Source: Patescibacteria group bacterium
Lineage (GTDB): Bacteria; Patescibacteriota; Patescibacteriia; CAIXNZ01
Length of the DNA: 64,000 nt
Assembly: GCA_028714455.1 (NCBI GenBank)
Contig: JAQTMG010000002.1
Location: 38,047-102,046, forward strand
Reading direction: 5' to 3'
The position numbers and the translations under genes are program-made. Positions 5,893 through 55,550 of this stretch are shown here, piece by piece. Every line of letters starts with the position of its first letter. The first letter of the stretch is position 1. The notes below the pieces were generated by a model that saw nothing but the letters and a program-made list of their open reading frames with translations, was not told the origin of the DNA and made no database searches.

Positions 5893-7464
5893 ATGAATAA
5901 GACAGAAAAAGTAAAAAATCTGCCTTTTGTTTTGGTTATTTTGGACGGCTGGGGTATTGCGCCAGCCAGCCCAAGTAATTCTATTTCCTTGGCTAAAAAG
6001 CCCAACGTGGACTATTTTTTGAAGCACTACCCAAATACGCAGCTCATCGCTTCGGGAGAAAAAGTCGGTCTTAAGAAAAATGAAGATGGAAATTCAGAAG
6101 CTGGGCATATGAATATCGGTGCTGGCAGAATTGTGAAGCAAGATCAGATCATGATTTCGGCAATGATAAAAAATAAAAGTTTCTTCAAAAATCCTGCTTT
6201 ACTTGAAGCGGTTAAGCATGCCCGCAAATTCAAATCAAACATTCATATAATGGGGCTTTTATCAAATGGCGAAAGCGCCCATTCTGATCCGGAACATCTT
6301 TTTGCGCTCCTGGAATTTTTACACAAACAAAAATTTCACAAGATTTATTTGCACATTTTTACTGACGGCCGCGATTCGCCGCCGCATGCGGCTGCGCGCC
6401 TGATGAACAAGCTGATTAATAATTTTAAAAATAGCGAGACCATTTCCACTGTCATGGGCCGATTTTACGCCATGGATCGCATTAAAAAATGGAATAGGAC
6501 AGAAGCAGCTTATAACGCCATGGTCATGGGTGACGGTTTGGTTTCTGATAATCCTTATAAAGCAGTTTCCGAAGCCTATAATCGTGGTGAGACAGATGAA
6601 TTCATTATTCCCACAATAATCAGAAATCCGAAAAAGAACCCGAAATTTATTAGTAATAATGATTCGGTTATATTTTTCAACCTGCGGTCTGATCGAGCGC
6701 GCCAAATCACCAAGCCATTTGTCCAGAAAAATTTTGAGAATGAAAATCCGGGCGCTTTCAAAAGGCATAAAGTTTTAAAAAATCTTAAATTCGTGGCGCT
6801 AACTAATTTCGGGCCAGACCTCGATGATATAAAAAATGTTTATGAGGGCCAGGAACTTGTTAATACTTTACCTTTCGCGCTAAAAGATATTAGGCAGGAA
6901 TACCTGGCCGAGCGCGAAAAATACGCACACGTAACTTACTTTTTTAATGGCGGCCATAATAGGCCTGTTAATGGCGAAATTTGGAGGCAAGTAAAATCAG
7001 AAGGCGCTCAAAATTACGAGACCTTTCCACAGATGTCAATTGTGACTTTGACTGATATAGTTTGCCAGGATGTTAAATCAAATGATTTTGATTTTATTAC
7101 AGTAAATTTTGCCAACGCCGACATGCTTGGTCATACTGGTAATATTGCGGCAGCTATTAAGGCGGTTGAATATATTGACAGTTGCTTGGGAAAAATTTAT
7201 AAAGCTTTAGAGAAAAAGAAAGGCACGCTAATGATTACGGCTGATCATGGCAATGCCGAAGAGATGATGAATATTAAAACACACGAGAAAGATACGGAAC
7301 ATAGTACAAATCCCGTGCCGCTGATAATTATTCATCCAGGTTTAACCAAGAAAAAATTAAAATTAAGAAAAGGTATATTGGGTGATGTGGCGCCAACAAT
7401 TTTGGCGTTGATGGGCCTAAAAGAGCCAAAGGAAATGACCGGGCGATCGCTGATTGTTAGTTGA
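5893..7464 (+). CDS. gpmI: 2,3-bisphosphoglycerate-independent phosphoglycerate mutase
   Basis: VLVILDGWGIAP, GNSEAGHMNIGAGR (catalytic Ser), ITADHGNAEEM. Confidence 0.9.
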   Translation: MNKTEKVKNLPFVLVILDGWGIAPASPSNSISLAKKPNVDYFLKHYPNTQLIASGEKVGLKKNEDGNSEAGHMNIGAGRIVKQDQIMISAMIKNKSFFKNPALLEAVKHARKFKSNIHIMGLLSNGESAHSDPEHLFALLEFLHKQKFHKIYLHIFTDGRDSPPHAAARLMNKLINNFKNSETISTVMGRFYAMDRIKKWNRTEAAYNAMVMGDGLVSDNPYKAVSEAYNRGETDEFIIPTIIRNPKKNPKFISNNDSVIFFNLRSDRARQITKPFVQKNFENENPGAFKRHKVLKNLKFVALTNFGPDLDDIKNVYEGQELVNTLPFALKDIRQEYLAEREKYAHVTYFFNGGHNRPVNGEIWRQVKSEGAQNYETFPQMSIVTLTDIVCQDVKSNDFDFITVNFANADMLGHTGNIAAAIKAVEYIDSCLGKIYKALEKKKGTLMITADHGNAEEMMNIKTHEKDTEHSTNPVPLIIIHPGLTKKKLKLRKGILGDVAPTILALMGLKEPKEMTGRSLIVS

Positions 7465-7541: not shown

Positions 7542-9131
7542 ATGACTAAACTAAAAAATAAACCCGTAGCGCTCTTAATACTTGATGGTTTTGGCATTGC
7601 GCCGCCAGCTCCGGGCAACGCCATTAGCCAGGCCAAAAAACCAAATATTGATAAATACATAGCCACCTATCCTTCAATGGCGCTGGTTGCTTCTGGCGAT
7701 TCGGTCGGTCTTTCCTGGGGGGAGATGGGCACTTCAGAAATCGGTCATCAAAATATAGGTTCAGGCATGATTGTCTATCAGTGGTTGCCCAGAATCAATA
7801 AAGCGATTTCTGACGGCACGTTTTTAAAAAACGAAGCATTTTTAAAAGCCGCGGCGCACGTTAAGAAAAATAAATCAAAGCTGCACCTCTTCGGCTTGGT
7901 CTCATCGGGCGGAGTTCATTCGCACATTGATCATTTATATTCTTTACTGCAATTTGCCAGCCGGCAAAAAATAAATGAAGTTTACATTCACGTGATTCTC
8001 GACGGCCGTGATAGCATTTACAACACGGGCAAAGGTTTTGTTGAAGAACTGTTAAATAAAATTAAAGAATTAAGAGTTAACGCGAAAATCGCCGACATAT
8101 CAGGCCGTTTTTACGCCATGGACCGCGATAATCATTGGGAAAGAACCGAAAAAGCCTTTAACGCCATGGTTAAGGGGGAGAGCGATGAAAAATTTGAAGA
8201 TCCGATTAAAGCCGTAGAGAGTTCTTACAAAAAAAAGGTTTACGATGAAGAATTTGTGCCGGCGGTAATTACAAAAAAAGGCAAACCAGTCGGTTTGATT
8301 GAAGATAAAGACGCCGTGATTTTTTTCAATTTCCGCGCCGATCGAGCCAGACAGATTTCCGAGGCGTTTATACTGCCGGAATTTGATAAATTTCCTCGTC
8401 CTGATTTTTCCAAATTGTTTTTTGTGGGCATGACGCAATACGATAAAGATTTACCACTTGACGCCTTTGCTTTCGCGCCGATTGAAATAAAAAAACCTTT
8501 GGCTAAAATTTTGAGCGACGCGGGTCTGAAGCAGTTGCATATAGCTGAAACAGAAAAATACGCTCACGTGACCTATTTTTTCAATGGCGGCGTGGAAGAG
8601 CCATTTCCTGGCGAGGATCGCATTGTTATTCCTTCGCCGCGCGTGCCCTCTTTTGATCAAAAACCCGAGATGTCCGCTTATAAAGTTACGGACGAAATCG
8701 TGAAAGCTGTTTCAGAAAACAAATATGATTTTATCGTGGCCAATTTTGCCAATACCGATATTGTGGCCCACACCGGTAACCTGAAAGCGACAATTGAGGC
8801 CGCCGAAGTGGTTGATAAATGCGTGGGCAAAATAATAAATTTGATTTTAAGCAAAAACGGCGTTGTTTTTTTGACTGCCGATCACGGCAATGGCGAAGAA
8901 TTACAAAACATCAAAACAGGGGAAATGGATAAGGAACACAGTACTAATCCCGTGCCGTTTATAATCATTGGTCATCAGTGGGAAGGCAAAAACCTTGGCC
9001 TGCCAGACAGCGTAGGCGGCGATTTAAGCTTAGTTACGCCTTCCGGTGTCTTAGCCGATGTAGCGCCCACGATTTTGAAGGTAATGGGCTTTAAACCCTC
9101 GAGTGAAATGACAGGAACGCCATTGATTTAG
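7542..9131 (+). CDS. gpmI: 2,3-bisphosphoglycerate-independent phosphoglycerate mutase, divergent tandem paralog
   Basis: LLILDGFGIAP, GTSEIGHQNIGSG, LTADHGNGEEL; roughly 40% identical by eye to the upstream copy. Confidence 0.88.
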   Translation: MTKLKNKPVALLILDGFGIAPPAPGNAISQAKKPNIDKYIATYPSMALVASGDSVGLSWGEMGTSEIGHQNIGSGMIVYQWLPRINKAISDGTFLKNEAFLKAAAHVKKNKSKLHLFGLVSSGGVHSHIDHLYSLLQFASRQKINEVYIHVILDGRDSIYNTGKGFVEELLNKIKELRVNAKIADISGRFYAMDRDNHWERTEKAFNAMVKGESDEKFEDPIKAVESSYKKKVYDEEFVPAVITKKGKPVGLIEDKDAVIFFNFRADRARQISEAFILPEFDKFPRPDFSKLFFVGMTQYDKDLPLDAFAFAPIEIKKPLAKILSDAGLKQLHIAETEKYAHVTYFFNGGVEEPFPGEDRIVIPSPRVPSFDQKPEMSAYKVTDEIVKAVSENKYDFIVANFANTDIVAHTGNLKATIEAAEVVDKCVGKIINLILSKNGVVFLTADHGNGEELQNIKTGEMDKEHSTNPVPFIIIGHQWEGKNLGLPDSVGGDLSLVTPSGVLADVAPTILKVMGFKPSSEMTGTPLI

Positions 9132-9167: not shown

Positions 9168-9539
9168 ATGAATAATTATATAAAATTCGAAGATTTGGAT
9201 GTTTATAAAATATCAAGAGAACTTTCGGGGGTTTCATGGGAAATTTTTCAAGCGTTAAATTCAGAGCAAAAATATATATTCGGCAAGCAATTTGTTACGG
9301 CAGTTGATTCGATAGGGGCAAACATTGCCGAAGGTTATGGTAGATATCATTATTTGGACAAAATAAGATTTTATTACAATGCCAGAGCATCTCTTTTTGA
9401 ATCTAAACATTGGGTAGATTTATTGCATGAAAGAAAAGTGATAGATGTTTCGAATCATAATTTACTTTTAGAAAAATTTAATTTACTGAATGCTAAATTG
9501 AATAATTTCATTAAAGCTACTTTGGAAAAATCCAAATAA
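9168..9539 (+). CDS. four-helix-bundle protein (23S rRNA intervening-sequence protein family)
   Basis: IGANIAEGYGRY signature; 123 aa; flanked by inverted heptamer arrays. Confidence 0.8.
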   Translation: MNNYIKFEDLDVYKISRELSGVSWEIFQALNSEQKYIFGKQFVTAVDSIGANIAEGYGRYHYLDKIRFYYNARASLFESKHWVDLLHERKVIDVSNHNLLLEKFNLLNAKLNNFIKATLEKSK

Positions 9540-12729: not shown

Positions 12730-12764
12730 GAAATATGAAATATGAATTATGAAATATGGAATTG
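12730..12764. repeat. heptamer tandem repeat (GAAATAT)x5
   Basis: GAAATAT GAAATAT GAATTAT GAAATAT GGAATTG. Confidence 0.7.
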
Positions 12765-12860
12765 GATGGGCGAAAATGGCCATCCTGCGCCGTATCGCAG
12801 GATTGTAGAGACGCGGTGCACCGCGTCTCTACGGCGTTTTACGCCAGCCATTTTCGCCCT
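12764..12860. repeat. REP-like composite palindrome family B, copy 1 (outer IR GGGCGAAAATGGC/GCCATTTTCGCCC; inner GTAGAGACGCGGTGCACCGCGTCTCTAC)
   Basis: Perfect 28-bp GC-rich palindrome inside nested hairpins; related copies at 32085-32203 and 59968-59995. Confidence 0.8.
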
Positions 12861-12916
12861 TTTTGTTTGGATAAATTTATGATATTATGATTTCATTATA
12901 GCAAATATAATTTTAT

Positions 12917-13957
12917 ATGAAAAAATTTATAATTTTGTTAATTTTGGCGATTTTAGTGGCGGTCATTTTATGGACGCTTAAGATTACTTTCATTTCGCAA
13001 AGCGGTAGTGGTATAGTCAAACAATTTGATATTAAAGAAGGGGTAGGCGTGCATCAAATCAGTCATGACTTAAAAAAGGCCAAACTGATTGACAGCTCTT
13101 TTGTTTTTGAAACCTATCTGTGGTTTATTCACGGCGGCAATAAAATTTTGGCTGGCCAGCACTCAATTAATGATAAATGGAGCGCTAGAACATTGTGCCG
13201 AGCTTTAATTACGGGCAGCGATTTGGAAAATGAAACAACTATAAAAATTCTTGAGGGCTGGGATTTACGCGATATCGCTGACTATTTTGAAAAGCAAGGC
13301 ATTGCTAAACAAGAAGATTTTTATGATATTGTGGGAACACCAACAATAAATTATGATTTGAATAAAAGTTTGGAAAAGCCAGTTGATTTTTCAACAACTT
13401 ATCCGATTCTTTCGGCTAAGCCGAAAAATTATAGCTATGAGGGATTTTTGTTTCCCGATACTTATCGGATTTTCAAAAACTCCAGCGTAAAAGTAGTCGT
13501 GGAAAAAATGATCAGCAATTTTCAGAAAAAAATAAGTAGCCAGATGATTTCAGACATGAATGCGGCTGGCAGAAATCTTTATGATGTAATTACCTTGGCC
13601 TCAATAATTGAAAAAGAAGAAAAGTCGCTTGAAGATAAAAAAATAGTGGCTGGCATTTATTATAATCGTCTGAAAATCGGCATGGCATTACAAGCCGATC
13701 CGACAGTGAATTATATTACTGGCAAGCAAAGCGGCGGACCCAGCCAGGTTGATTTAGAAAGCAAAAATTTATATAACACTTACAAATACCGCGGTTTACC
13801 GCCCGGACCGATTTGTAATCCCGGCCTTGATTCGATTATGGCCGCCATTTATCCGACTAAAAGCAGCTATTTATATTTTTACAACGGACCAGACGGCAAG
13901 CTTTATTCGGCCAAGACGCTCGAGGAACACAATAATAACATCTGGCTTCATCATTAA
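12917..13957 (+). CDS. mltG: endolytic murein transglycosylase MltG (YceG-like)
   Basis: N-terminal TM; ADPTVNY, YNTYKYRGLPPGPICNPG. Confidence 0.85.
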   Translation: MKKFIILLILAILVAVILWTLKITFISQSGSGIVKQFDIKEGVGVHQISHDLKKAKLIDSSFVFETYLWFIHGGNKILAGQHSINDKWSARTLCRALITGSDLENETTIKILEGWDLRDIADYFEKQGIAKQEDFYDIVGTPTINYDLNKSLEKPVDFSTTYPILSAKPKNYSYEGFLFPDTYRIFKNSSVKVVVEKMISNFQKKISSQMISDMNAAGRNLYDVITLASIIEKEEKSLEDKKIVAGIYYNRLKIGMALQADPTVNYITGKQSGGPSQVDLESKNLYNTYKYRGLPPGPICNPGLDSIMAAIYPTKSSYLYFYNGPDGKLYSAKTLEEHNNNIWLHH

Positions 13958-14643: not shown

Positions 14644-15804
14644 TTATCTGGCAGTACAGATGGCCTTTTGGTGATCGTTGATGACGGCCAGGTCACCGCC
14701 CATTGCTGTCTGCAGAGCGTTCAGGGCGCCGTAGATAACGCCGATTTTGATATTGGCGTCATTCTGCTTATCCCTCCAGTTGTATTTCTTGCCATAGATC
14801 TTGATCAGATCGCAGATCAGGTGGTAGAAGGTGTTCAGCTTGTTCGGGCCAGTGCAGTAGACCTTTTTCAGCTTGGCCAGTTCTTCCTTAACTTTGGCGC
14901 GCAGTTCTTCATTCGATTTGAAACGGGGGATAAGCGCTTCTAGCCATTCGCAAAGACCCTCGGTTGTGAATTGAATTTTTTGCGATTCCGCAACCGGTTT
15001 TTGAATCTCAACGAGTTTTTGTTTGGCTTCGGCGCTGTTGGTCACTGATGCTTCGGCGGGTTGTTTGATAACTACTTCTTTGACCTCGACAGTTTCAATA
15101 ACTTTTTGCGTGGGCAAATCGGGCAGTGAAAGGACTTCCAGCTCAACCTTTTCCCCAAGGTCGAATTCTTTTGGCGTTATCTCTTGAAGTTTTCGAGCGA
15201 AGTGGGTATCAATTAGCGTGAGTAGGTAGGACGGCAGTTTGCTCATGCTCTGATGAATGTGATTTTTGAGTTCATCGGCCGAGCATTTGATTTGCCGTTC
15301 GATGAGCAGATTTACCACTGCCTGAAGCTCCTGATAAAAAACAAATTCAAGACGATCTGTTCTGCTAAAGTCCTGCATTTCCCGAGAGTCAGACATAAAC
15401 TCATCGATGAAAGCGCGAATGACCATGCCCCTATCTATTTCTTTCCTGGATTCCGCATCTGATGACTCCCTCTCTTTAATTAACTGATCTAGGGTGTTTA
15501 TCTGACCCCACATATAAAGGTCCTGGTCATCCTCAAACACGCTGGTAAATATGTCGGGGTTGGTGATGTTGTAGCCCTTTAGTAAAATTCCCGCGAGCTC
15601 AAGCGCCTCCCACATAGTCACCCAGCCGCCGTAATTGATAAGGTCTTGCTTAACCTTATCCCAGACGCGCCTGAAAGTATAAATAGCGAGCTTCTGGTCA
15701 TCATATTGTAGATCATTGAGGATTCTAGCGGCGTCACCATCTTCCATCCTGTCGCTGAAAAACTGTCCGAAAAGTTCGCGTCTGCTTCTATTGGTAAGTG
15801 CCAT
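14644..15804 (-). CDS. hypothetical protein, high-GC orphan (386 aa)
   Basis: GC visibly ~50% against an AT-rich background; conserved TTGACA-N17-TAAATT promoter at 15907-15912 (minus) and a ~70-nt leader with AAGGAGG. Confidence 0.5.
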   Translation of the reverse strand: MALTNRSRRELFGQFFSDRMEDGDAARILNDLQYDDQKLAIYTFRRVWDKVKQDLINYGGWVTMWEALELAGILLKGYNITNPDIFTSVFEDDQDLYMWGQINTLDQLIKERESSDAESRKEIDRGMVIRAFIDEFMSDSREMQDFSRTDRLEFVFYQELQAVVNLLIERQIKCSADELKNHIHQSMSKLPSYLLTLIDTHFARKLQEITPKEFDLGEKVELEVLSLPDLPTQKVIETVEVKEVVIKQPAEASVTNSAEAKQKLVEIQKPVAESQKIQFTTEGLCEWLEALIPRFKSNEELRAKVKEELAKLKKVYCTGPNKLNTFYHLICDLIKIYGKKYNWRDKQNDANIKIGVIYGALNALQTAMGGDLAVINDHQKAICTAR

Positions 15805-17323: not shown

Positions 17324-17351
17324 GGGCTCGAATTAACCGAGCCCTTTTTCT
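17324..17351 (+). terminator. hairpin GGGCTCGAATTAACCGAGCCC + TTTTTC
   Basis: Perfect 7-bp stem. Confidence 0.65.
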
Positions 17352-17412
17352 TTACAAAAAATTTATTATATGTTAAGTTAGGATATAAATTTGTTCCTTG
17401 AAAGGAGAAAAA

Positions 17413-21078: not shown

Positions 21079-21117
21079 ATTTATTTAGTATAAAGCTTTA
21101 AATATTTTTGTAAACTT

Positions 21118-21146
21118 GCCAAAATAATTAAAAAGCCTTAAGATTA
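21118..21146 (+). promoter_or_regulatory. promoter TTGCCAAAA-N-TAAGAT, member of the conserved motif family
   Basis: Spacer 17. Confidence 0.5.
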
Positions 21147-22790: not shown

Positions 22791-22819
22791 TTGACAAAAA
22801 TTATACTCCTGCTATACTG
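22791..22819 (+). promoter_or_regulatory. promoter TTGACAAAA-N17-TATACT for the rplJ-rplL operon
   Basis: Followed by a ~200-nt leader, a possible L10 autoregulatory leader. Confidence 0.55.
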
Positions 22820-22977
22820 TATTTATAACCGCAGACAATAGGTTTTCGCAAGATGTAAATCCTATCGAGGTTGTAAAATCAATAATTGATTTTTTATCGT
22901 ATTGTCTGTGGGAAACCGCAGATTTTTTTGTTTTAGATATTGGAGATTGGTGACTGGAGATTAGCGAAAGGAAAAAT

Positions 22978-27968: not shown

Positions 27969-27997
27969 TTGACGCGTATATTGCGGTGGGGTATAAT
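27969..27997 (+). promoter_or_regulatory. mraZ promoter TTGACG-N17-TATAAT
   Basis: Canonical -10. Confidence 0.65.
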
Positions 27998-30090: not shown

Positions 30091-30395
30091 GTTTTGAGCT
30101 TTTAATATACTTTTTGCTAAATATTGTTCGTACTGATTATCTGTTCTTTTTGTAACCAAAAAGAACCAAAAAGTTTTGGGGTCGCAAATGCGCTAGTGCA
30201 TATAGCTCGTTTTATCGCGACGCCCGTGACGCTTAGTTGCGCCCCCAAACCCCAGGGAGCTTTTAACAACTTTCTTTCGACAAAATTATTATTAGCTTGT
30301 ACTGAGCGAATAAAAAGCGCCGAAGGGCTCCCCAGACCCCTCCGGAGCTTTTAATACGTTTTCACGGGGCTTTATTTTATGCAAAAATAAAAAAT
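30091..30395 (+). ncRNA. candidate structured non-coding RNA (class unknown), bounded by a promoter-like TTGAAT-N16-TATACT and terminators
   Basis: ~300 nt with no credible ORF and GC well above its flanks; repeated motif CCCCAAACCCCAGGGAGCTTTTAA / CCCCAGACCCCTCCGGAGCTTTTAA; strand uncertain. Confidence 0.3.
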
Positions 30396-31591: not shown

Positions 31592-31620
31592 TTGACAAAA
31601 AAATATTTTATTGCTAAGTT
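31592..31620 (+). promoter_or_regulatory. conserved promoter TTGACAAAA-N-TAAGTT
   Basis: Spacer 17; drives the 31652 gene. Confidence 0.5.
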
Positions 31621-31651
31621 GAAGTCAAACTTCAAAAAGGAGGAGCTTAAA

Positions 31652-32026
31652 ATGAATGGAGAAGAAGGATTGAAATTGCAATTACTTTGTGCGCTGAAGC
31701 ACATCAGAACTTTAAAAGCGAGAACGGACGATGGGGAATCGTACAAAACTGGCGACATGACTAGAGTGGCTAACACCATCGGAATTGTCGTTGAAGATGT
31801 GGGCCCGAACGAAGATTTCGTGCTTGTTTACATGGCCAAAAAAATTGTCGCGCCCAAAATTTCCGGTTCGGGAACCAATTTTGTCCCGGGAGAAAACGTT
31901 TACTACGATTCGCAGGCGCACAAAGTGACGACTTCGAGCTCGGGCAACGTTCTCTGCGGCAAAGCCCTGGAGTCAGCCAGTGATTCGGCAAGCGAAGTTC
32001 TGATCGAGCTCATCGTGTTTGCGTAG
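31652..32026 (+). CDS. small protein, DUF2190-like (tentative; two-lobed Gly/Val-rich beta pattern)
   Basis: SD AAAAAGGAGGAGCTTAAAATG; GIVVEDVGPNEDFVLV ... SGNVLCGKALESASDSASEVLIEL; higher GC. Confidence 0.4.
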   Translation: MNGEEGLKLQLLCALKHIRTLKARTDDGESYKTGDMTRVANTIGIVVEDVGPNEDFVLVYMAKKIVAPKISGSGTNFVPGENVYYDSQAHKVTTSSSGNVLCGKALESASDSASEVLIELIVFA

Positions 32027-32084
32027 AATCGCAATTTATCAAACCAAGGCGGAGCAGAAATGCTTCGCCTTTTAATTTTAGGAG

Positions 32085-32203
32085 AGGCGAAAACGGCCCA
32101 TTACGTAGAGACGCGACATGCCGCGTCTCTACAACGGTTTTTTTGCACGCCGTAGAGACACGGCGCGCCGTGTCTCTACAACGGTCGTGGGCCGTTTTCG
32201 CGA
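32085..32203. repeat. REP-like composite palindrome family B, copy 2 (outer IR CGAAAACGGCCCA/TGGGCCGTTTTCG; two inner palindromes GTAGAGACGCGACATGCCGCGTCTCTAC and GTAGAGACACGGCGCGCCGTGTCTCTAC)
   Basis: Perfect 28-bp palindromes at 32105-32132 and 32152-32179. Confidence 0.85.
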
Positions 32204-32212
32204 ATCGATTAT

Positions 32213-32245
32213 TGACTTTTTTTATTTTTTGAATTATGCTAAGTT
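32213..32245 (+). promoter_or_regulatory. promoter-like TTGACT ... TATGCT/TAAGTT
   Basis: Upstream of the 32307 gene. Confidence 0.4.
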
Positions 32246-32306
32246 ATTAAGATGTTCTCTAATAAAAGTCCCATCCAGGGGCAATAAAAAAGGGGGTGAT
32301 AATTTG

Positions 32307-32747
32307 GTGAATGAAAAGTTGAAGTTGAGACAGCAGGCTTTGTTTTTGGTGGGCGGTTCGTATAAGGGAGAAAACGCTAAATTGATTTTGGCAAAGATCA
32401 GACAAGCGCTGGAAGATGGCTCGATTCATATTGAAGAGTTGGGCGTAACGCTGGAACAACTCAAGGAAGCCGAAGAGAAAATCAAAAAAGAGACTCTGCC
32501 CCGCGTTCAGGAAATGTCAGAAGCAGAGGCTAAGGATTTGGCCAGTGGTTTTGGCAAGTTGTGGCAGCAATATCAAACCGAAGCGGACGCGGATCAGAAA
32601 AAAGAGATTTTGGCTCTAATGAAAACCATGTGGCCACGCCTGGTTCATGGGGTTAAGGCTCGCCTGATTGTTTACGCCGATCTTGGCCTCGAAGACGCCG
32701 GAGAATATTTCGTAATTTCAGACGTCATGCACCAAGGCGGAAAATAA
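32307..32747 (+). CDS. hypothetical protein (~146 aa, GTG start 7 nt after AGGGGGTGA)
   Basis: The track ORF from 32118 begins inside the REP element; the SD-supported start is the in-frame GTG at 32307; higher GC. Confidence 0.45.
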   Translation: MNEKLKLRQQALFLVGGSYKGENAKLILAKIRQALEDGSIHIEELGVTLEQLKEAEEKIKKETLPRVQEMSEAEAKDLASGFGKLWQQYQTEADADQKKEILALMKTMWPRLVHGVKARLIVYADLGLEDAGEYFVISDVMHQGGK

Positions 32748-32777
32748 AGTCCTCTTAATCTTGAGAGGACTTTTTAT
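32748..32777 (+). terminator. hairpin AAGTCCTCTTAATCTTGAGAGGACTT + T-run
   Basis: 10-bp stem. Confidence 0.7.
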
Positions 32778-32778
32778 A

Positions 32779-32807
32779 TTGACAAAAATAGAATAATTTG
32801 TTAAGTT
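32779..32807 (+). promoter_or_regulatory. conserved promoter TTGACAAAA-N-TAAGTT
   Basis: Spacer 17. Confidence 0.5.
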
Positions 32808-32829
32808 TTTGTTATCAAGGGAGGTCAAA

Positions 32830-33009
32830 ATGGTACACGAAAAAGATCTTATTCTGGCGATCAAGCAAGTTGTCGGGTTGGATCGGCGAGAAATCCTTTT
32901 GAGCAGGCTGAAGGGCATCCATCCGGTTGATGACAAATTTTCCGGAGAACAGCTTGACAAAATCTTCGACGGTATGCCCGATTTAAGAAAGATTTTTCGC
33001 GAAGGATAA
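32830..33009 (+). CDS. small hypothetical protein (59 aa)
   Basis: SD AAGGGAGGTCAAAATG; own promoter and terminator (33009-33038). Confidence 0.4.
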   Translation: MVHEKDLILAIKQVVGLDRREILLSRLKGIHPVDDKFSGEQLDKIFDGMPDLRKIFREG

Positions 33010-33065
33010 GTTCCCGGTTTTACTGGGAACTTTTTTTATTGCCTGAAATTTGATAAAATTAAGCC

Positions 33066-37763: not shown

Positions 37764-37792
37764 AAGGCCGCTCGATATCGGGCGGTTTTTTT
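37764..37792 (+). terminator. hairpin + T-run after the transferase gene
   Basis: GCCGCTCGATATCGGGCGG TTTTTTT. Confidence 0.5.
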
Positions 37793-37860
37793 ATCCGCCG
37801 AAGCTTTCTCGTACGCCGTAGCTTTAGCAAAGGCGTAAGCGGAGGCGGAATTTGACAATT
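37790..37860. repeat. 70-bp direct repeat, copy A (TTTATCCGCCGAAGCTTTCTCGTACGCCGTAGCTTTAGCAAAGGCGTAAGCGGAGGCGGAATTTGACAATT), ending in a -35 TTGACA
   Basis: ~95% identical to 39190-39258; internal palindrome TACGCC..GGCGTA. Confidence 0.85.
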
Positions 37861-37880
37861 ATTGTAATTTTTGATATATT
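37852..37880 (+). promoter_or_regulatory. promoter TTGACA-N17-TATATT (extended TGATATATT), with the -35 supplied by repeat copy A
   Basis: Drives the 37919 gene. Confidence 0.5.
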
Positions 37881-38586: not shown

Positions 38587-38615
38587 TTGACAAAAATGGA
38601 AATTTAAGTTAAGTT
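38587..38615 (+). promoter_or_regulatory. conserved promoter TTGACAAAA-N-TAAGTT
   Basis: Spacer 17; ~100-nt leader. Confidence 0.5.
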
Positions 38616-38714: not shown

Positions 38715-39149
38715 ATGGACAAGAAGGCGAAGGCGTTGAAGAGGATTTTAAGCGAGTTTCCCTGGCTTTGGGCGCTAAGCAACGTTTGGTCCGCAAAACA
38801 CGATAGTGTCACGGTTTATCGTGGCGGAAACCCAGGCGAAGAAAAGTTTCGCAGATTTATCTTTGAAATGTTTTTCTTCTGCCAGGAAGAACATAAAAAT
38901 CTTGTCTCCGAATTCAAAATCTTCATCAAATACGACGGTTGTAGCGAGAGCTTTGTTATGATTACTCCGACCCAGGGAATGCCGTTGTTTTTGGGTTATT
39001 ACGATTCTTTTTTTGCAAGAGCCTCTGTACCGGGTGCGCATTGCGTATGTATTACATACAAAGATGGAAACGAGAGAAAATATATGCTATTCCTGCTTCC
39101 CGAAAATTGGCGGGGAATCGCTAAAGCCGCCTGCGAAGTTTGCTGCTAG
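38715..39149 (+). CDS. hypothetical Cys-containing protein (144 aa), high GC
   Basis: SD GGAGGTTCAGAATG. Confidence 0.4.
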   Translation: MDKKAKALKRILSEFPWLWALSNVWSAKHDSVTVYRGGNPGEEKFRRFIFEMFFFCQEEHKNLVSEFKIFIKYDGCSESFVMITPTQGMPLFLGYYDSFFARASVPGAHCVCITYKDGNERKYMLFLLPENWRGIAKAACEVCC

Positions 39150-39189
39150 AATTTATAAACCGCTTGGCTTATGCTGGGCGGTTTTTTCT

Positions 39190-39258
39190 TTATCCGCCGT
39201 AGCTTTCTCGTACGCCTTAGCTTTAGCAAAGGCGTAAGCGGAGGCGGAATTTGACATT
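39190..39258. repeat. 70-bp direct repeat, copy B
   Basis: TTTATCCGCCGTAGCTTTCTCGTACGCCTTAGCTTTAGCAAAGGCGTAAGCGGAGGCGGAATTTGACATT. Confidence 0.85.
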
Positions 39259-39279
39259 ATTTTTAAAATACGCTATCAT
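39251..39279 (+). promoter_or_regulatory. promoter TTGACA-N17-TATCAT for rplU, with the -35 supplied by repeat copy B
   Basis: Spacer 17. Confidence 0.5.
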
Positions 39280-40748: not shown

Positions 40749-41198
40749 ATGACCCTGGTTTTGTTGATGGTTTTCGCAATCGGCTTGGTTACGCTGATGG
40801 TGGTCACTCGCAAAAAGCGCGGCATCAACCAGGTCAGCGGGTTTTCCGCGACCAATCTTTACCGCGCGGTGGTTGACCCGGCCGAGCTCAAAGAGCGGGC
40901 CCGGACCATCAAAATCATGAACAAACGCCTGCGCTGGGCCAGACATCGGTTGGAACAGCCGCACCTGTGCAAAAAGGCCAAGCTGAAACGCGCCCTTCGG
41001 TATATCCAGGAAGCGCATCGGCATGAATTGTCCGAGATCCGATCCTGCGCTCGCACGCTGGTGAACCTGTTTGGCCGGTATGCCGATGCCAAGATCAGGC
41101 ACCAGCTGGACATGACGCTGAAACCGTCCGCACCCGCCCCGCTGACCAGCAAAAGCAAAGTCGAGGAACTCATCGTTTCCCTGGCCAACGCGGCCTAA
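40749..41198 (+). CDS. hypothetical protein with N-terminal TM helix, Arg/Lys-rich, high GC
   Basis: SD AAAGGAGGCATTCGATG. Confidence 0.4.
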   Translation: MTLVLLMVFAIGLVTLMVVTRKKRGINQVSGFSATNLYRAVVDPAELKERARTIKIMNKRLRWARHRLEQPHLCKKAKLKRALRYIQEAHRHELSEIRSCARTLVNLFGRYADAKIRHQLDMTLKPSAPAPLTSKSKVEELIVSLANAA

Positions 41199-42645: not shown

Positions 42646-42792
42646 AAGATATGGATAACCACGAAATTTTATTCACGAAAAACACTAAATTTTCGTGAGT
42701 TTTTGTGTAATATTTTCGTGGTTCATCTTTCAGCTATTTTATCTTAACCATTTTAGCAAACTTTGACAAGTAATTAAATGTTTAGAAGTTGT

Positions 42793-42821
42793 TGACAAAA
42801 ATGTGGATTTTGGATAAGCTT
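42793..42821 (+). promoter_or_regulatory. conserved promoter TTGACAAAA-N-TAAGCT
   Basis: Spacer 16-17. Confidence 0.45.
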
Positions 42822-43255: not shown

Positions 43256-43284
43256 TTGACAAAAATGACATTTTTAGATAAGAT
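43256..43284 (+). promoter_or_regulatory. conserved promoter TTGACAAAA-N-TAAGAT
   Basis: Spacer 17; drives purB. Confidence 0.5.
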
Positions 43285-43322: not shown

Positions 43323-44807
43323 ATGATTAAAAGGTATGTTAACAAAAAAATCGAGGAAATCTGGGCACTTGGGAAAAAGTATGAGCTGTGGCTCATGCTT
43401 GAGCTGACTGTTATCAGGATCAGGTGCGCAATGGGTATGTTTCCAAAATATACCCATGAAAAAATTTGTGACGCCTTAGGTGAGATTGAATTTGGTGACA
43501 AGCAAATCGCCGAAATTGCAGAGATTGAGAAAAAGACAAAGCATGACCTCAATGCTTTTATCGAGTGGATAAAAGCACGTCTGCCCGTTGATCTTCGCAT
43601 GTACATACATTGGAAGATGACATCATATGATACTGAAGAAGCGCCGTTTAGCCTGATGCTGCTCGAATCCTTTGATCTTGTAATTCAGCAATGTGATCAT
43701 CTTTGCGACGTGCTTCATGAAATGGTCTATAAATACCGCTATGTGCCCATGCTTGGACGCACGCACGGTCAGGAAGCCAAACTCCAGTCCTTTGGTCTGC
43801 GCGCTCTGCGCTGGTACCTTGCGCTGGATGAAGCACGACAGCAGCTTCTTGATTCGCAGAAAGAAATTAAGCTTTCAAAGCTAAGCGGTGCGATCGGCAA
43901 CTACCAGGGGATCACTCCAGAAGAAGAGGACGCAGTGCTGCGTTCGCTCGGACTCAAGCCTTTTGTTGGCGCATCACAGATTATGCCTCGTATTTTGCAC
44001 CAACCTCTTGTCAATGCCTTGCTTATGATCGTGGGCAGTTTGACTCAGATTGCCGAAGATATCAGAATCGCGGCGCGCAGCGGACTGCCGCTCATGCAGG
44101 AATTTTTTGACAAGGGCCAGATGGGATCATCGGCCATGCCCCACAAAAAAAATACCATCACCTGTGAAAATCAAATCGGCACGTGGCGCATGGCCAAAGG
44201 CTATGGCAATATGCTAAGAGATTGCATGTTAACTTGGGAAGAGCGTGCTATTGAGCAATCCTGTGTCGAGCGTGTTGCCTGGCCAGATCTTTTCCATGTA
44301 GTTATGCAGTCTTTCAAAAACATGGCAAGCGTGCTCGAACGCCTGCAGGTTTTCCCAGATCATATGATGCTGGAAATCGACAACTCGCACGGCTGCTATG
44401 CCTCGGAAGAAGCAAAAGAGCTGCTCAAGGAATTTGGCCTGATCGATGAGGCTTACAAAATTGTGCAGCTCGCCGCGGCCAATGTCCATGAGCATGGCCA
44501 GGTTCTGAGCGATTACAGAAAGCAGCTGCAGGCCAGTTCGGTCGAAGGATATCCGGATATCGATGATGCTGTGCTGCTCGGCAAGCATTACCGAAGTGAA
44601 GAAGTCGACTCGATCAATCGAGTGATCTCGCAGGGCGATCTGCGCCCCGCAGAGGCGCTTGGGCACAGCGAAGAGACAGTCAGCGCCTGGAATAAAAAAC
44701 TCAAGGAAATCTTTGCTGACCCGAAAAAGCTGGAAAAGTGGAACGAGGTTTTTACCATCACCTTCCAGCTGCGTAACGAATCATTTATTTTTGAAACGCA
44801 CAAGTAA
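43323..44807 (+). CDS. purB: adenylosuccinate lyase
   Basis: N-terminal RY...IW...KYELWLMLE; fumarate-lyase signature GSSAMPHKKN; GC ~50%. Confidence 0.85.
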   Translation: MIKRYVNKKIEEIWALGKKYELWLMLELTVIRIRCAMGMFPKYTHEKICDALGEIEFGDKQIAEIAEIEKKTKHDLNAFIEWIKARLPVDLRMYIHWKMTSYDTEEAPFSLMLLESFDLVIQQCDHLCDVLHEMVYKYRYVPMLGRTHGQEAKLQSFGLRALRWYLALDEARQQLLDSQKEIKLSKLSGAIGNYQGITPEEEDAVLRSLGLKPFVGASQIMPRILHQPLVNALLMIVGSLTQIAEDIRIAARSGLPLMQEFFDKGQMGSSAMPHKKNTITCENQIGTWRMAKGYGNMLRDCMLTWEERAIEQSCVERVAWPDLFHVVMQSFKNMASVLERLQVFPDHMMLEIDNSHGCYASEEAKELLKEFGLIDEAYKIVQLAAANVHEHGQVLSDYRKQLQASSVEGYPDIDDAVLLGKHYRSEEVDSINRVISQGDLRPAEALGHSEETVSAWNKKLKEIFADPKKLEKWNEVFTITFQLRNESFIFETHK

Positions 44808-46627: not shown

Positions 46628-46755
46628 TGTCCCTCCTTTTGGTTTTGATTTAGTTTTCCAAACACTTTATATTTTAACTTTAGTTTTTAGCTAAAGATTG
46701 TAAAGAACCGATGGCTGTACCTTAAACAAAATTTTGATAAATGTCAATGTTTATA

Positions 46756-46784
46756 TTGACAAAACACATTAGAGTTGGTAAGGT
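46756..46784 (+). promoter_or_regulatory. conserved promoter TTGACAAAA-N-TAAGGT
   Basis: Spacer 17. Confidence 0.5.
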
Positions 46785-52487: not shown

Positions 52488-52517
52488 AAGCGGGTGCCTA
52501 GCGTCCGCTTTTTTATT
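52488..52517. terminator. bidirectional hairpin AGCGGGTGCCTAGCGTCCGCT flanked by A/T runs
   Basis: Between convergent genes. Confidence 0.55.
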
Positions 52518-53049
52518 ATTTATATGATAATTTTTTTCCTCTAATTACCGCGCACTCGCTATATTTATGTAAGCTTTTACGCTTTTGATTTTGAATATGA
52601 ATAACTTTATAGCCAAGTGATTTTAATTTATCAGAAAGCAGCATACGATGGCAATTCCAGTATAATAATTCGGCGCACATAATGGCCGCGTTGCCTCCTT
52701 TAACTTCTTTTAGCAATTTTTTGAAGCCGTTTTGAAATCCCTTGGTTTGCATGTAAATTGCGTAATTGCGGAACCAGCTGGAGCGCCAGCAAGCGCCTTG
52801 TTTATTTTTTACTTTGGCTAATTCTTTTTTGGCGCGATAGCCACCCAATTCTTGGCCGAGCCAGAGATATTTTATTTCATTTTTTTTCAGAGTTCGTTTG
52901 AGAATGTACTGGTTGAATTGGGGGTTATAAGCTGAACCAGGGAATCGGCGCACGTCAATCAATTCTGAAATTTTATATGCCTTAAGAATGTCAATGAATT
53001 CTTTCATCGGATGGGTTGAGTGACCGATTGTGAAAACCGTTTTTGTCAT
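52516..53049 (-). CDS. DUF488-family protein
   Basis: VFTIGHSTHPMKEFIDILK; 177 aa; TTGACA promoter on the minus strand (-35 at 53070-53075; -10 TAAGTT would sit at a short 14-bp spacing, 17-18 bp to GTTATG/TTATGA). Confidence 0.7.
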   Translation of the reverse strand: MTKTVFTIGHSTHPMKEFIDILKAYKISELIDVRRFPGSAYNPQFNQYILKRTLKKNEIKYLWLGQELGGYRAKKELAKVKNKQGACWRSSWFRNYAIYMQTKGFQNGFKKLLKEVKGGNAAIMCAELLYWNCHRMLLSDKLKSLGYKVIHIQNQKRKSLHKYSECAVIRGKKLSYK

Positions 53050-53661: not shown

Positions 53662-54000
53662 TTACGCTTCATGCCTTTTTAATTCCTTGAGCCTGCCTTT
53701 AGCCAGAATTTTCAGTTCATCGGTCGGGGCATGAATGATCCAGTATTGGAGACGAATCGGGTCGTCTGCGGCGGAAATTGCCTTTTGCGCGGCTTGCTCT
53801 TGCAATTTTTGGTCGCACGAGATCATGCCCACCAAAATAGCTTCTTCATAAAACCGAGCAAGCGCCAGAGCTTTTTTAAGCGCTTCCTCTCTCTGCGGAC
53901 CAGTAACACCCTCGGTCAGTTCGATACACTTGGTAAAATTATCAGCCTGTTCGAGTATGTTATGAAAAGCGGCTATCTCCGGACTTATCTCCGATCCCAT
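53662..54000 (-). CDS. hypothetical protein (113 aa)
   Basis: SD AAAGGAGGGCAAAATG; minus-strand conserved promoter TTGACAAAA-N-TAAGGT at ~54027-54061. Confidence 0.4.
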   Translation of the reverse strand: MGSEISPEIAAFHNILEQADNFTKCIELTEGVTGPQREEALKKALALARFYEEAILVGMISCDQKLQEQAAQKAISAADDPIRLQYWIIHAPTDELKILAKGRLKELKRHEA

Positions 54001-54110
54001 TTTGCCCTCCTTTGTTTTAAAATCTATATCACACCTTAGCAAAAATAGAGATTTTGTCAAGTGAGTTTTTGCAAAAGAAAAACCCCCGCGAGATCGCGAG
54101 GGTTGGGGGA

Positions 54111-54686
54111 TTAAAGTTTGGGAAGCTGTTTTGGCACTGGTTCGCCAATTTGGGCCCAGATCCGTTCCTCTGCTTCTAGCGCGAGAGGCGTTAAACTCGC
54201 CGGAGCATGTTTCACTGCCCCGCGAATCTGCCTTGCGTTTCCCGCTGCCGCTGCCAGCTCGATGAACTTTTTCCAGTAGATTTCGGGAGTGGACAGCATG
54301 TAAAGAGAGTCGTCAAGCTTTTCCATGCTCGGCGCTCTCTTGACGCACTCATCCGCCGCCCGGCGCCTTTTCTCCGCCGCTTTAAAATAATCGTGTTCGG
54401 GGACGTCCTGTCCCGGCAGCATTTGAACCAGCCAATGCCAGAATTCAAATCCAAGATCCGGTTCTTCGTAGTTTTCGAGCAGGGAAAGACATTTTTGCCT
54501 GGCCATAAACTGCATTTTGTCGGTTACGTAATGGCGCTTTGTTTGCTCGTACGCCCAGCGCGCTTCGAGCGGAGTGGTCGCGGCATTGATGCACGCCCAC
54601 AGAGCATTGATATAGGTCGCCTCGAGCTGCAATTTTCTTTCCTCCAGGTTAAGAATCTCTTGCTTCAGCTCATCGAAATTCGACAT
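54111..54686 (-). CDS. hypothetical protein (191 aa), high GC
   Basis: SD AAAAGGAGGATAAAAATG; minus-strand conserved promoter TTGACAAAAC-N-TAAGTT at 54725-54753. Confidence 0.45.
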   Translation of the reverse strand: MSNFDELKQEILNLEERKLQLEATYINALWACINAATTPLEARWAYEQTKRHYVTDKMQFMARQKCLSLLENYEEPDLGFEFWHWLVQMLPGQDVPEHDYFKAAEKRRRAADECVKRAPSMEKLDDSLYMLSTPEIYWKKFIELAAAAGNARQIRGAVKHAPASLTPLALEAEERIWAQIGEPVPKQLPKL

Positions 54687-54749
54687 TTTTATCCTCCTTT
54701 TATTTTAGGAACAATTGATTTAATAACTTATCAGAAAATTTTCGTTTTG

Positions 54750-55550
54750 TCAACCGCGCGCCATTTTATAGACGTTGGCCAGCAGCATGGCGATGGTCAT
54801 GGGTCCGACGCCGCCGGGGACAGGGGAACGATAGGCGACAACCTTATCAACTTCCGGATCAACGTCACCCACGGTTTTACCAGCGATTTTATTAATGCCA
54901 ACATCGATGATTGTCGAATTTTTCTTGACCATGTCGGTTTTGATAGATTTTGGTTTGCCTACGGCGACGATGAGAATATCGGCACTTGAGCTCTGAGCTT
55001 TGAGCTCTGAGCTCGAAGCTTTGGGCGAAAGGTAAGAAACATTACATTCGCGCATTAACGGTTTAAACGGTTCAGCGAATTTTTCAGAGTTTGATAAAAT
55101 CACAACTTTTTTATTTTTCAAATTTTCACCAGTACTTTTAATCAGTTCAATAATGCCCGAAACCGTCGGTGAAATAATTTTTGACTGCGGTTGAAAGCCA
55201 TCCACGTCTTTTTCCGGCGAAATCCTGGCTATTATTTTATCAGTGTCAAAGTTTTTGGGCAGAGGCAGCTGAATCAAGATGCCGGTAATCTGCTCATCCT
55301 TATTTAAAAAATCAATGACTTCAAATATTTTTTCTTCGCCGCAATCCTCTGACAAAAAATAACTGGAAAATTCAATGCCAACCTCAAGGCAGGCTTTGGC
55401 TTTTAATTTTATATAAAGTTCAGATGAGGGATCATTGCCAATTAAAATAGAAGCCAGAGCTGGTTTTTTGTCCATTTGAATTATTTTGCCGCGAAGTTCT
55501 AATTTAATTTTTTCGGCCAGAATTTTGCCGTCAATGAGTTTGGCTGACAT
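54750..55550 (-). CDS. folD: bifunctional methylenetetrahydrofolate dehydrogenase / methenyl-THF cyclohydrolase
   Basis: AKLIDGKILAEKIK...; GVGPMTIAML; start at the internal MSAKL; contains an in-frame heptamer-repeat insertion (54988-55026) encoding ...KASSSELKAQSSSAD... Confidence 0.88.
   Translation of the reverse strand: MSAKLIDGKILAEKIKLELRGKIIQMDKKPALASILIGNDPSSELYIKLKAKACLEVGIEFSSYFLSEDCGEEKIFEVIDFLNKDEQITGILIQLPLPKNFDTDKIIARISPEKDVDGFQPQSKIISPTVSGIIELIKSTGENLKNKKVVILSNSEKFAEPFKPLMRECNVSYLSPKASSSELKAQSSSADILIVAVGKPKSIKTDMVKKNSTIIDVGINKIAGKTVGDVDPEVDKVVAYRSPVPGGVGPMTIAMLLANVYKMARG
54988..55026. repeat. heptamer GAGCTCN tandem repeat inside the folD coding sequence
   Basis: GAGCTCT GAGCTTT GAGCTCT GAGCTCG AAGCTTT GGGC. 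Confidence 0.65.

Follow-up and report, generated by a model that had tools for sequence, protein, structure and literature searches.

The stretch analyzed here is a 64-kb segment of contig JAQTMG010000002.1 from a Patescibacteria group bacterium; the whole 64,000 nucleotides are referred to as the window. The 31.6-33.0 kb part of the window contains three small genes, and the subject of this work is the promoter-like motif in front of them and of other genes, a TTGACA box (-35) followed after 17 bp by a TAAGnT box (-10). As judged from the sequence, the motif is most likely a functional promoter, and we regard it as a clade-specific variant of the ordinary σ70-type promoter. The more notable result is that two architectures appear to coexist in one genome: backbone genes that lack a Shine-Dalgarno (SD) sequence and look leaderless, and accessory genes that have both the -35 box and an SD. 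The features of the focal stretch are as follows (GC3, GC content at third codon positions; REP, repetitive extragenic palindrome).

31592..31620, plus strand: promoter of the 124-aa Phage_cement_2-like gene, TTGACAaaa-N17-(TGc)TAAGTT, 3 nt past the tgt stop codon
31652..32026, plus strand: 124-aa gene (PF09956 Phage_cement_2), AAGGAGG SD, GC3 0.56
32046..32071, plus strand: intrinsic terminator of the 124-aa gene
~32085..32205, no strand assigned: REP-like nested palindromes, GGCGAAAACGGCC ... 2x GTAGAGAC..GTCTCTAC ... GGCCGTTTTCGC
32212..32245, plus strand: promoter of the 147-aa orphan, TTGACT-N17-TATGCT, overlapped by TGCTAAGTT
32304..32747, plus strand: 147-aa orphan (hyp147), G-rich SD, terminator at 32746-32773, no Pfam or PHROG match
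32779..32807, plus strand: promoter of the 59-aa orphan (32830-33009), TTGACAaaa-N17-(TGt)TAAGTT
33008-33032, plus strand: intrinsic terminator of the 59-aa orphan

An exact-pattern scan of the window for TTGACA-N16-18-TAAGNT gave nine matches (31592+, 32779+, 38587+, 42792+, 43256+, 46756+, 46747-, 54060- and 54753-), compared with 0.07 expected and with a maximum of one in any of 100 shuffles. All nine sites are intergenic and gene-facing, and each is followed by an SD and an open reading frame (ORF) within 135 nt; most are located directly 3' of the terminator of the preceding gene. The spacer is 17 bp in eight of the nine and 16 bp in the remaining one (54060-). A wider scan, in which the -35 could deviate at one position and the -10 could be any TANNNT, added 21116+, 17351+ and 42769-; four sites beyond the nine have a one-mismatch -35, and about four weaker copies of the motif exist. 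Outside the focal stretch, the following sites were assigned.

38587..38615, plus strand: promoter of the 144-aa orphan (hyp144, 38715-39149), TTGACAaaa-N17-TAAGTT
42792..42820, plus strand: promoter of the 129-aa orphan (hyp129), TTGACAaaa-N17-TAAGCT
43256..43284, plus strand: promoter of purB, TTGACAaaa-N17-TAAGAT
46719..46747, minus strand: promoter of purH, TTGACA-N17-TAAGGT, 91-nt leader
46756..46784, plus strand: promoter of the purC-purE fusion (purCE), TTGACAaaa-N17-(TGg)TAAGGT
54033..54060, minus strand: promoter of the 112-aa orphan (53662-54000), TTGACAaaa-N16-(TGc)TAAGGT
54725..54753, minus strand: promoter of the 191-aa orphan (54111-54686), TTGACAaaa-N17-(TGa)TAAGTT
21116..21144, plus strand: weaker copy before phoH2 (PIN+PhoH), TTGCCAaaa-N17-TAAGAT
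17351..17379, plus strand: weaker copy before a radical SAM/SPASM gene, TTTACAaaa-N17-(TGt)TAAGTT
42741..42769, minus strand: dnaB upstream region, TTGTCA-N17-TAAGAT, choice of the -10 ambiguous

An earlier note on the window had pointed out this motif, and most of its sites were recovered. Exact matches are present before the genes at 31652, 32830, 38715, 42851, purB, purCE, 53662-54000 and 54111-54686, and phoH2 has the weaker TTGCCA copy (21116+). The variants it had named are also there: TAAATT for the gene at 14644-15804 (15912-), the partial match TACATT for the gene at 40749 (40651+), and TATACT both at rplJ (22791+) and at the small ORF behind 5184+. The list was incomplete, however, since purH (46747-), dnaB and the 17351+ site were missing from it. 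For the DUF488 gene (52516-53049; 53075-) the note had proposed a TAAGTT box at 14 bp from the -35, but the TGtTAAAAT that lies 6 nt before the ATG, of the leaderless type, is more likely. In the focal stretch it had seen three such single-gene units together with a REP composite. The units and the composite are present, and each unit has its own terminator, all three being rated as strong intrinsic ones; the middle unit, however, is TTGACT-N17-TATGCT, and its overlapping TAAGTT is located 5 nt past the TATGCT, 22 bp from the -35. Like the 32085-32205 region, two other intergenic regions, ~12730-12830 of the window and ~4060-4180 of the related locus L001, contain REP-like palindromes (GGCGAAAA[C/T]GGCC ... 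GTAGAGACnnGnnnnnCnnGTCTCTAC ... GGCCnTTTTCGCC).

We aligned the sites on the -10 box and tabulated the columns individually. In the TAAGnT class, TTGACA is followed by AAA (9, 9 and 8 of 10 sites at the three positions), a T-rich stretch lies before the -10, and G occupies position -14 in about 8 of 10 sites. The promoters with TATAnT or other -10 boxes (rplJ, mraZ, rplU, a winged helix-turn-helix gene and several orphans) do not differ from this class in -35, spacing or G-14 (8/10). TAAGnT differs from TATAAT at the middle bases and keeps T-12, A-11 and T-7, the positions that σ70 reads base-specifically. Two core-gene promoters were taken as controls; the second had been quoted in the earlier note and is present as given there.

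22791..22818, plus strand: rplJ, TTGACAaaa-N16-(TGc)TATACT
27969..27997, plus strand: mraZ, TTGACG-N17-TATAAT

The Rfam L10 leader (22811-22939) begins at the rplJ promoter, which makes it an indirect positive control that a -35 of this type marks real promoters. It is the sole Rfam match in the window, and Rfam found no known leader RNA behind the motif promoters.

The DnaB protein of the window is 60-80% identical to those of Uhrbacteria-, Magasanikbacteria- and Falkowbacteria-type metagenome-assembled genomes (MAGs), which places the window in Patescibacteria; a metagenome scan with DnaB found nothing closer than 71% identity. For comparison, 2.26 Mb of DnaB-centred loci from relatives and outgroups were used. 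In these loci, TTGACA-N16-18-TANNNT has a TAAG-type -10 in 9 and a TATA-type -10 in 68 of 224 sites; in the window the numbers are 9 and 4 of 20. The difference in the TAAG fraction is significant (Fisher p = 8e-7), thus TAAGnT is not a consensus of the candidate phyla radiation (CPR) as a whole.

The nearest relatives were located via PurH and an orphan. DnaB is 90%, 82% and 80% identical to the window in L199, L196 and L001, respectively; PurH is 72% identical in L195 and 63% in L197 and L198, the last being Candidatus Buchananbacteria RBG_13_39_9. Among the promoters followed by an SD and an ORF, the third base of the -10 is A in 14/18 sites of the window and 18/20 of the nearest relatives, compared to 13/41 in other ABY1-like CPR loci and 24/71 in outgroups. 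The dinucleotide AG at -10 positions 3-4 is more restricted, with 11/18, 8/20, 2/41 and 2/71 in the same four sets, and the -10 of the more distant ABY1-like relatives is varied. TAAGnT is thereby best described as the local version of a clade-level -10, TAA(G/T)nT, of the nearest Buchananbacteria-like relatives. A phage origin of the promoter was also considered and rejected: a scan of IMG/VR for TTGACAAAAAT-N12-TAAGTT found 24 contigs with one match each, which is the chance level, and no second TAAG-type promoter occurs in 23 of the 24.

Several of the promoters are conserved between genomes. The purCE promoter reads TTGAC(A/G)-N17-TAAGGT in six genomes, in which TTGAC, G-14 and the whole hexamer are invariant and the spacer has diverged. 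The TAAGGT of purH is kept in L195. The divergent promoter region between dnaB and hyp129 is ~95% identical between the window and L199, compared to ~81% over the full alignment, most of which is coding sequence of dnaB. These observations indicate that the promoters are constrained non-coding elements. Different from purCE, whose class is stable, the promoters of purH, purB and the slot after dnaB switch class between orthologues. The purH -10 is TAAGGT in the window and TAAATT or TAAAAT in L196-198; the purB -10 is TAAGAT in the window and TAATTT in three relatives; the slot after dnaB has TACATT in the window, TATGAT in L199, TAAATT in L001 and TAAGCT in L196. Such class switching at orthologous slots fits one sigma factor with tolerant middle positions.

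Three side observations concern the same promoters. Upstream of dnaB, the pair TAAAAT-N3/4-TAAGAT is kept in the window and in L196, L197, L198 and L199, with TAAAAT as the upstream box, at a distance of 3 nt in the window and 4 nt in the relatives; because of this conserved pair, the TAAGAT of dnaB may be something other than a -10. The purH leader (46628-46719, minus strand) contains a hairpin, CTTTAGCTAAAAACTAAAG, that is shared with L195 (775-870), and the purB leader contains 'TGGGGCAnGnnACnTTGAAAATAnTGGGAnTTnCCCAATA' in three relatives (L196 ~12890-12960, L197 ~9445-9515 and L198 ~13260-13330, all on the minus strand). Neither leader has a Rfam match; both may be purine-responsive RNA elements.

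The genes behind the promoters form a distinct class. With respect to the SD, the genes of the window (e.g. those at 1085, 12917, 30474, 33066, 56857- and 60268) fall into two groups, 17 with a full SD of the AAGGAGG type and about 50 core genes with none. The SD-less genes include pgk, enolase, both iPGM copies, rplJ/L/U, mraZ, rsmH and tgt, as well as those for a ClpB-like ATPase and a Mur ligase, dnaB, uvrD, folD and glyA. In 18 of the SD-less genes, TATAAT or TAAAAT is located 3-12 nt before the start codon, and these 18 are probably leaderless. The mean GC3 is 0.557 in the 17 SD-positive genes and 0.404 in the rest (p = 1e-8). All nine exact TAAGnT promoters precede SD-positive genes, and TAAG versus TATA is associated with the SD class (p = 0.018). 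By Pfam, the annotated genes with TAAGnT are purB, purH, the purC-purE fusion, phoH2 and the Phage_cement_2-like gene, to which the radical SAM/SPASM gene with the weaker TTTACA copy can be added. About eight proteins behind TAAGnT have no Pfam match, six of which have no PHROGs match either; a PHROGs search of ten SD-positive orphans gave no matches.

Like the backbone of the window, its ABY1-like relatives are SD-poor, with an SD-like motif in 42 of 635 ORFs. This agrees with the report that many Parcubacteria lack the anti-SD, the motif being detected in only 48% of Parcubacteria 16S rRNAs (PMC9297842); none of the loci retrieved here contains the 3' end of a 16S gene. As a side observation, the sequence directly before the ATG is an odd G-poor, low-complexity tract in several backbone genes (for example 'catatttcataattcatatttcatatttctaattctATG', 'ctcaaccaatcactctcaaccaaactctctactctccaccattaaccctcaaccATG' or 'tataggagctacagg' in repeated units), and such tracts may be SD-independent translation leaders.

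12722-, 51972+, 9581+, 40284-, 58825-/58973+ and 5893+: G-poor tracts before start codons

The positions of the SD-positive genes were compared with the relatives. L085, L009, L019, L081, L091 and L093 share a backbone with intergenic gaps of mostly tens of bases; its order is mraZ-rsmH-(ftsL-like)-tgt-hyp120-ClpB-like-GT4-rplU on one side and recR-dnaB-folD-glyA on the other. Within the coverage of the DnaB-centred loci, all SD-positive genes of the window fall in gaps of this backbone; those at 14.6-22.7 kb (hyp386, hyp110 and phoH2) lie outside the compared loci and were not placed. The three focal genes fall between tgt and hyp120, which are adjacent in L085, the hyp208 and hyp144 genes between GT4 and rplU, hyp149b between recR and dnaB, and a 12-kb block between dnaB and folD. 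A tblastn search of the SD-positive orphans against the 2.26 Mb of relatives' loci gave no matches. The closer Buchananbacteria-like genomes share the macro-uvrD-purCE-purH-purB block, but have other small ORFs in the same slots. For hyp149b (40749-41198), one homologue (51% identity) was found among 5.8 billion proteins, and it is located in the same recR-dnaB slot of L199.

The 124-aa gene has homologues of 51-59% identity. Two of these were looked up; both are located within phage-like structural operons of other bacteria, with capsid-like genes adjoining, and both have their own AAAGGAGG SD and no promoter of their own. An SD can thus travel with a gene, with the promoter supplied in the recipient. 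In the window the gene stands alone as a homologue of a phage decoration ('cement', PF09956/DUF2190) protein, outside any prophage context and between a promoter and a terminator of its own.

Some further observations concern single regions. The GC3 of hyp149b is 0.76, compared to ~0.40 as typical, and a 204-aa antisense ORF overlaps it. The purB gene (43323-44807) is 30% identical to its counterpart in L196 (11535-12890) and 50% identical to that in L001 (2039-3550), in the same syntenic position, and purH is 48-64% identical; as DnaB identity is 80-82%, these low values suggest xenologous replacement within the pur block. An 82-nt direct repeat of 91% identity (37786-37867, plus strand, and 39185-39266), composed of a 57-nt hairpin and TTGACA, brackets the 1.4-kb hyp208 + hyp144 insertion, and its right copy gives the -35 of the rplU promoter.

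With these data, the broader proposals of the earlier note can be judged. It had placed the motif in front of orphan genes; many orphans indeed have it, but annotated genes have it too, and for 6 of the 17 SD-positive genes the -10 is of another type. The motif is not the form of the core genes, nor is it equally frequent before them: TATAnT or TAAAAT is found at rplJ, at mraZ and at those core genes that look leaderless. The suggestion that TAAGTT is the real -10 of the lineage survives in the form TAA(G/T)nT, for the leadered, SD-positive promoters of the nearest relatives, but not for CPR in general. Of the proposed regulon of accessory genes, the accessory character stands: the genes have an SD and higher GC3, occupy backbone gaps in the part that could be compared, have no homologues in the 2.26 Mb of relatives' loci, and include a phage structural homologue. 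The regulon or alternative-sigma part is unlikely, though credible, in view of the shared -35, spacing and G-14, the class switching and the heterogeneous functions.

Taken together, we consider it on balance probable that these elements are promoters of the σ70 family, likely read by the primary sigma factor, and that accessory genes of this Buchananbacteria-like Patescibacteria genome are each transcribed from them as separate units. The data show the motif itself, with its enrichment, anatomy, tie to a gene class, phylogenetic spread and conservation; we infer that it functions as a promoter, that the primary sigma reads it and that TAAGnT is a weaker or tuned -10 relying on the -35. RNA polymerase would be recruited mainly by the perfect -35 (TTGACA + AAA), the optimal 17-bp spacer and the extended -10 base G-14. 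The -10 would contribute only T-12, A-11 and T-7, and its middle bases would reflect the clade flavour TAA(G/T)nT, here mostly TAAGnT. Each unit would be a cassette complete in itself, from the promoter through a leader of 15-100 nt, the AAGGAGG SD and the ORF to an intrinsic terminator, and the cassettes would occupy the gaps of a backbone whose own genes are SD-less and often leaderless-looking.

Several points weigh against this interpretation. Hexamer positions 3 and 4 covary (AG versus TA), and the AAA after the -35 is stronger in the TAAG class; both would also fit two recognition modes. The -35-less, leaderless-looking promoters of the window have TATAAT or TAAAAT and never TAAGnT, so the optimum of the primary sigma seems unchanged, and a model with one sigma offers no mechanism for the strong bias towards G at position 4 of the hexamer. 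The sample is also small, one 64-kb window and ~55 kb from close relatives.

The bimodal -10 and the restriction of TAAG to promoters with a -35 would be expected if a second, closely related sigma, a group-2-like paralogue of the primary one, preferred TAAGnT or TAA(G/T)nT and shared the -35 and TG contacts, in which case the accessory genes would be separately controllable. The tie between TAAG and SD-positive accessory genes, the clade-restricted distribution and the strict retention of TAAGGT, middle bases included, at purCE in six genomes point in the same direction. We nevertheless hold this to be unlikely, though credible: the two classes have identical -35 boxes, spacer lengths and G-14, a TAAGnT promoter can have TAAATT, TAATTT or TATGAT in its orthologue, the target genes (purB/purH/purC-E, phoH2 and orphans) are functionally unrelated, and there is no sigma gene within the window. 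The one σ70 gene seen in the loci examined belongs to a distant one, L003, and does not bear on this genome. A more elaborate form is a two-tier system, in which backbone genes are expressed from -35-less TATAAT promoters as SD-less leaderless mRNAs, and acquired or variable genes occupy fixed TTGACAaaa-TGn-TAAGnT slots that are read by a dedicated sigma paralogue or a modified holoenzyme and are translated via a perfect SD. This we regard as improbable; if true, the accessory genome could be controlled as a block, and the -35 box may double as a junction for payload exchange.

Quite improbable, in our estimate, is that duplication or recombination has spread one promoter module through the genome, with TTGACAAAAAT as a short-homology junction, or that the promoter is a resident slot with swapped payloads; the uniformity would then stem from common descent and not from recognition. 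The 82-nt repeat around hyp208 + hyp144, ending just past TTGACA, speaks for it, as does the hyp129 slot: the homology of the window with L199 is highest (~95%) as far as TTGACAAAAATG and continues to a few nt beyond the -10, after which the genes differ, the L199 promoter (TAAGGT) driving a GAPDH gene in place of hyp129, so that both payloads follow a TAAGsT box. The 44-nt promoter segments are moreover 64-80% identical to one another. However, no conserved sequence was found upstream or downstream of the aligned sites, where the identity between promoters (0.29 over 12 nt upstream and 0.31 over 15 nt downstream) is at the background of 0.27-0.30, and the excess similarity is confined to functional positions (AAA, T-tract and G-14) common to unrelated genomes. 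The homology of the hyp149b cassette with L199, for its part, starts at the cassette's own -35. A copy-paste origin, or a promoter-bearing mobile repeat of the REP type or the miniature inverted-repeat transposable element type, was rejected on the same negative flank-similarity test.

Very improbable is an operator for a transcription factor (for example a silencer or activator of acquired genes) that overlaps an ordinary promoter and consists of TAAGnT, alone or together with the A/T tracts of the spacer: a conserved G at hexamer position 4, which σ70 does not need, and AAAAT...ATTTT inverted repeats in many spacers would fit it, but only ~5 specific bases lie outside standard promoter positions, the inverted repeats vary in spacing (0-5 nt) and position and occur in TATAnT promoters as well, and the aligned sites contain no fixed dyad or direct-repeat site of ~14-20 bp, only promoter positions and variably spaced A/T tracts.

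The elements resemble several known systems in part. Like the σ70/σA extended -10 promoters of Bacillus subtilis and other Gram-positive bacteria, they have TTGACA, a 17-bp spacer, G-14, T-12/A-11/T-7, A/T-rich surroundings and a strong AAGGAGG SD downstream; different from these, the middle of the -10 is AAG or AAT and not TAA, and the form is confined to one small CPR clade and, within this genome, to accessory genes. In the lac P1 promoter of Escherichia coli the -10 is TATGTT, compared to TATAAT in lacUV5. The likeness to lac P1 is in the G at position 4 and the TT at positions 5-6, TAAGTT being one base from TATGTT (hyp147 has TATGCT), and in a non-consensus -10 that is offset by other promoter elements. 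Here, however, the offset would come from a perfect -35 and TG and not from an activator, and a dozen promoters have the variant, which is also kept from one genome to another. Taxon-restricted departures from TATAAT are known for σABfr of Bacteroidetes (TAnnTTTG at -7, TTTG at -33) and HrdB of Streptomyces (TAGRRT); these variants are phylum-wide and include core genes, whereas the present one is limited to a narrow clade in which core genes keep TATAAT or TAAAAT. Group 2 sigmas (RpoS and the cyanobacterial SigB-E) would share the geometry, differ by a subtle -10 preference and control non-core genes, but the orthologous promoters here interconvert between classes. Like integron cassettes, the units are small, variable, often orphan single genes in hot spots; unlike them, every unit comes with a promoter, an SD and a terminator, and the units point in both directions. 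No integrase was found among the 50 ORFs scanned against Pfam (~20 others were unscanned), and no attC-like site was seen, nor any repeated 3' site beyond ordinary terminators.

The absence of an SD from the backbone genes of the window and its relatives matches the picture of SD-poor Parcubacteria (PMC9297842); the minority with a perfect AAGGAGG, coinciding with -35 promoters and accessory genes, does not. The extended -10 element (TG, or 'TRTG -16 region') has been summarised (PMC12641261). In the literature we found no TAAGTT-type -10 paired with TTGACA; the sole match to TAAGTT was a SigF promoter of Synechocystis, which belongs to an unrelated group-3 sigma (PMC2532724). Transcription start data for CPR were found only for Nanosynbacter (PMC12641261), and no other study of CPR promoters was found.

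The promoters and translation signals of CPR/Patescibacteria are almost uncharacterised, and the window suggests that one small genome can hold two sharply different expression architectures, split along backbone versus variable genes. In practice, TTGACAaaa-N17-TAA(G/T)nT followed by AAGGAGG could be used as a signature of accessory or recently gained genes in these MAGs, could improve the placement of start codons and could provide strong native promoters for genetic tools. It also raises the questions of how foreign genes are wired into streamlined symbiont genomes, and of whether the SD functions in a lineage reported to be often without anti-SD.

Two minor features of the window lie apart from the promoters. 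One ~130-nt element (30137-30266) is 85% identical to a segment of L199 (1655-1785) that lies at a different locus. It reads CTTTTTGTAACCAAAAAG...GGGGTCGCAAATGCGCTAGTGCATATAGC...TGACGCTTAGTTGCGCCCCCAAACCCC and might fold into a long hairpin. Rfam gave no match at E<0.01, and the element may be mobile or encode a small RNA. The two iPGM copies are tandem paralogues (5893-7464 and 7542-9131), adjoining pgk and a likely enolase gene.

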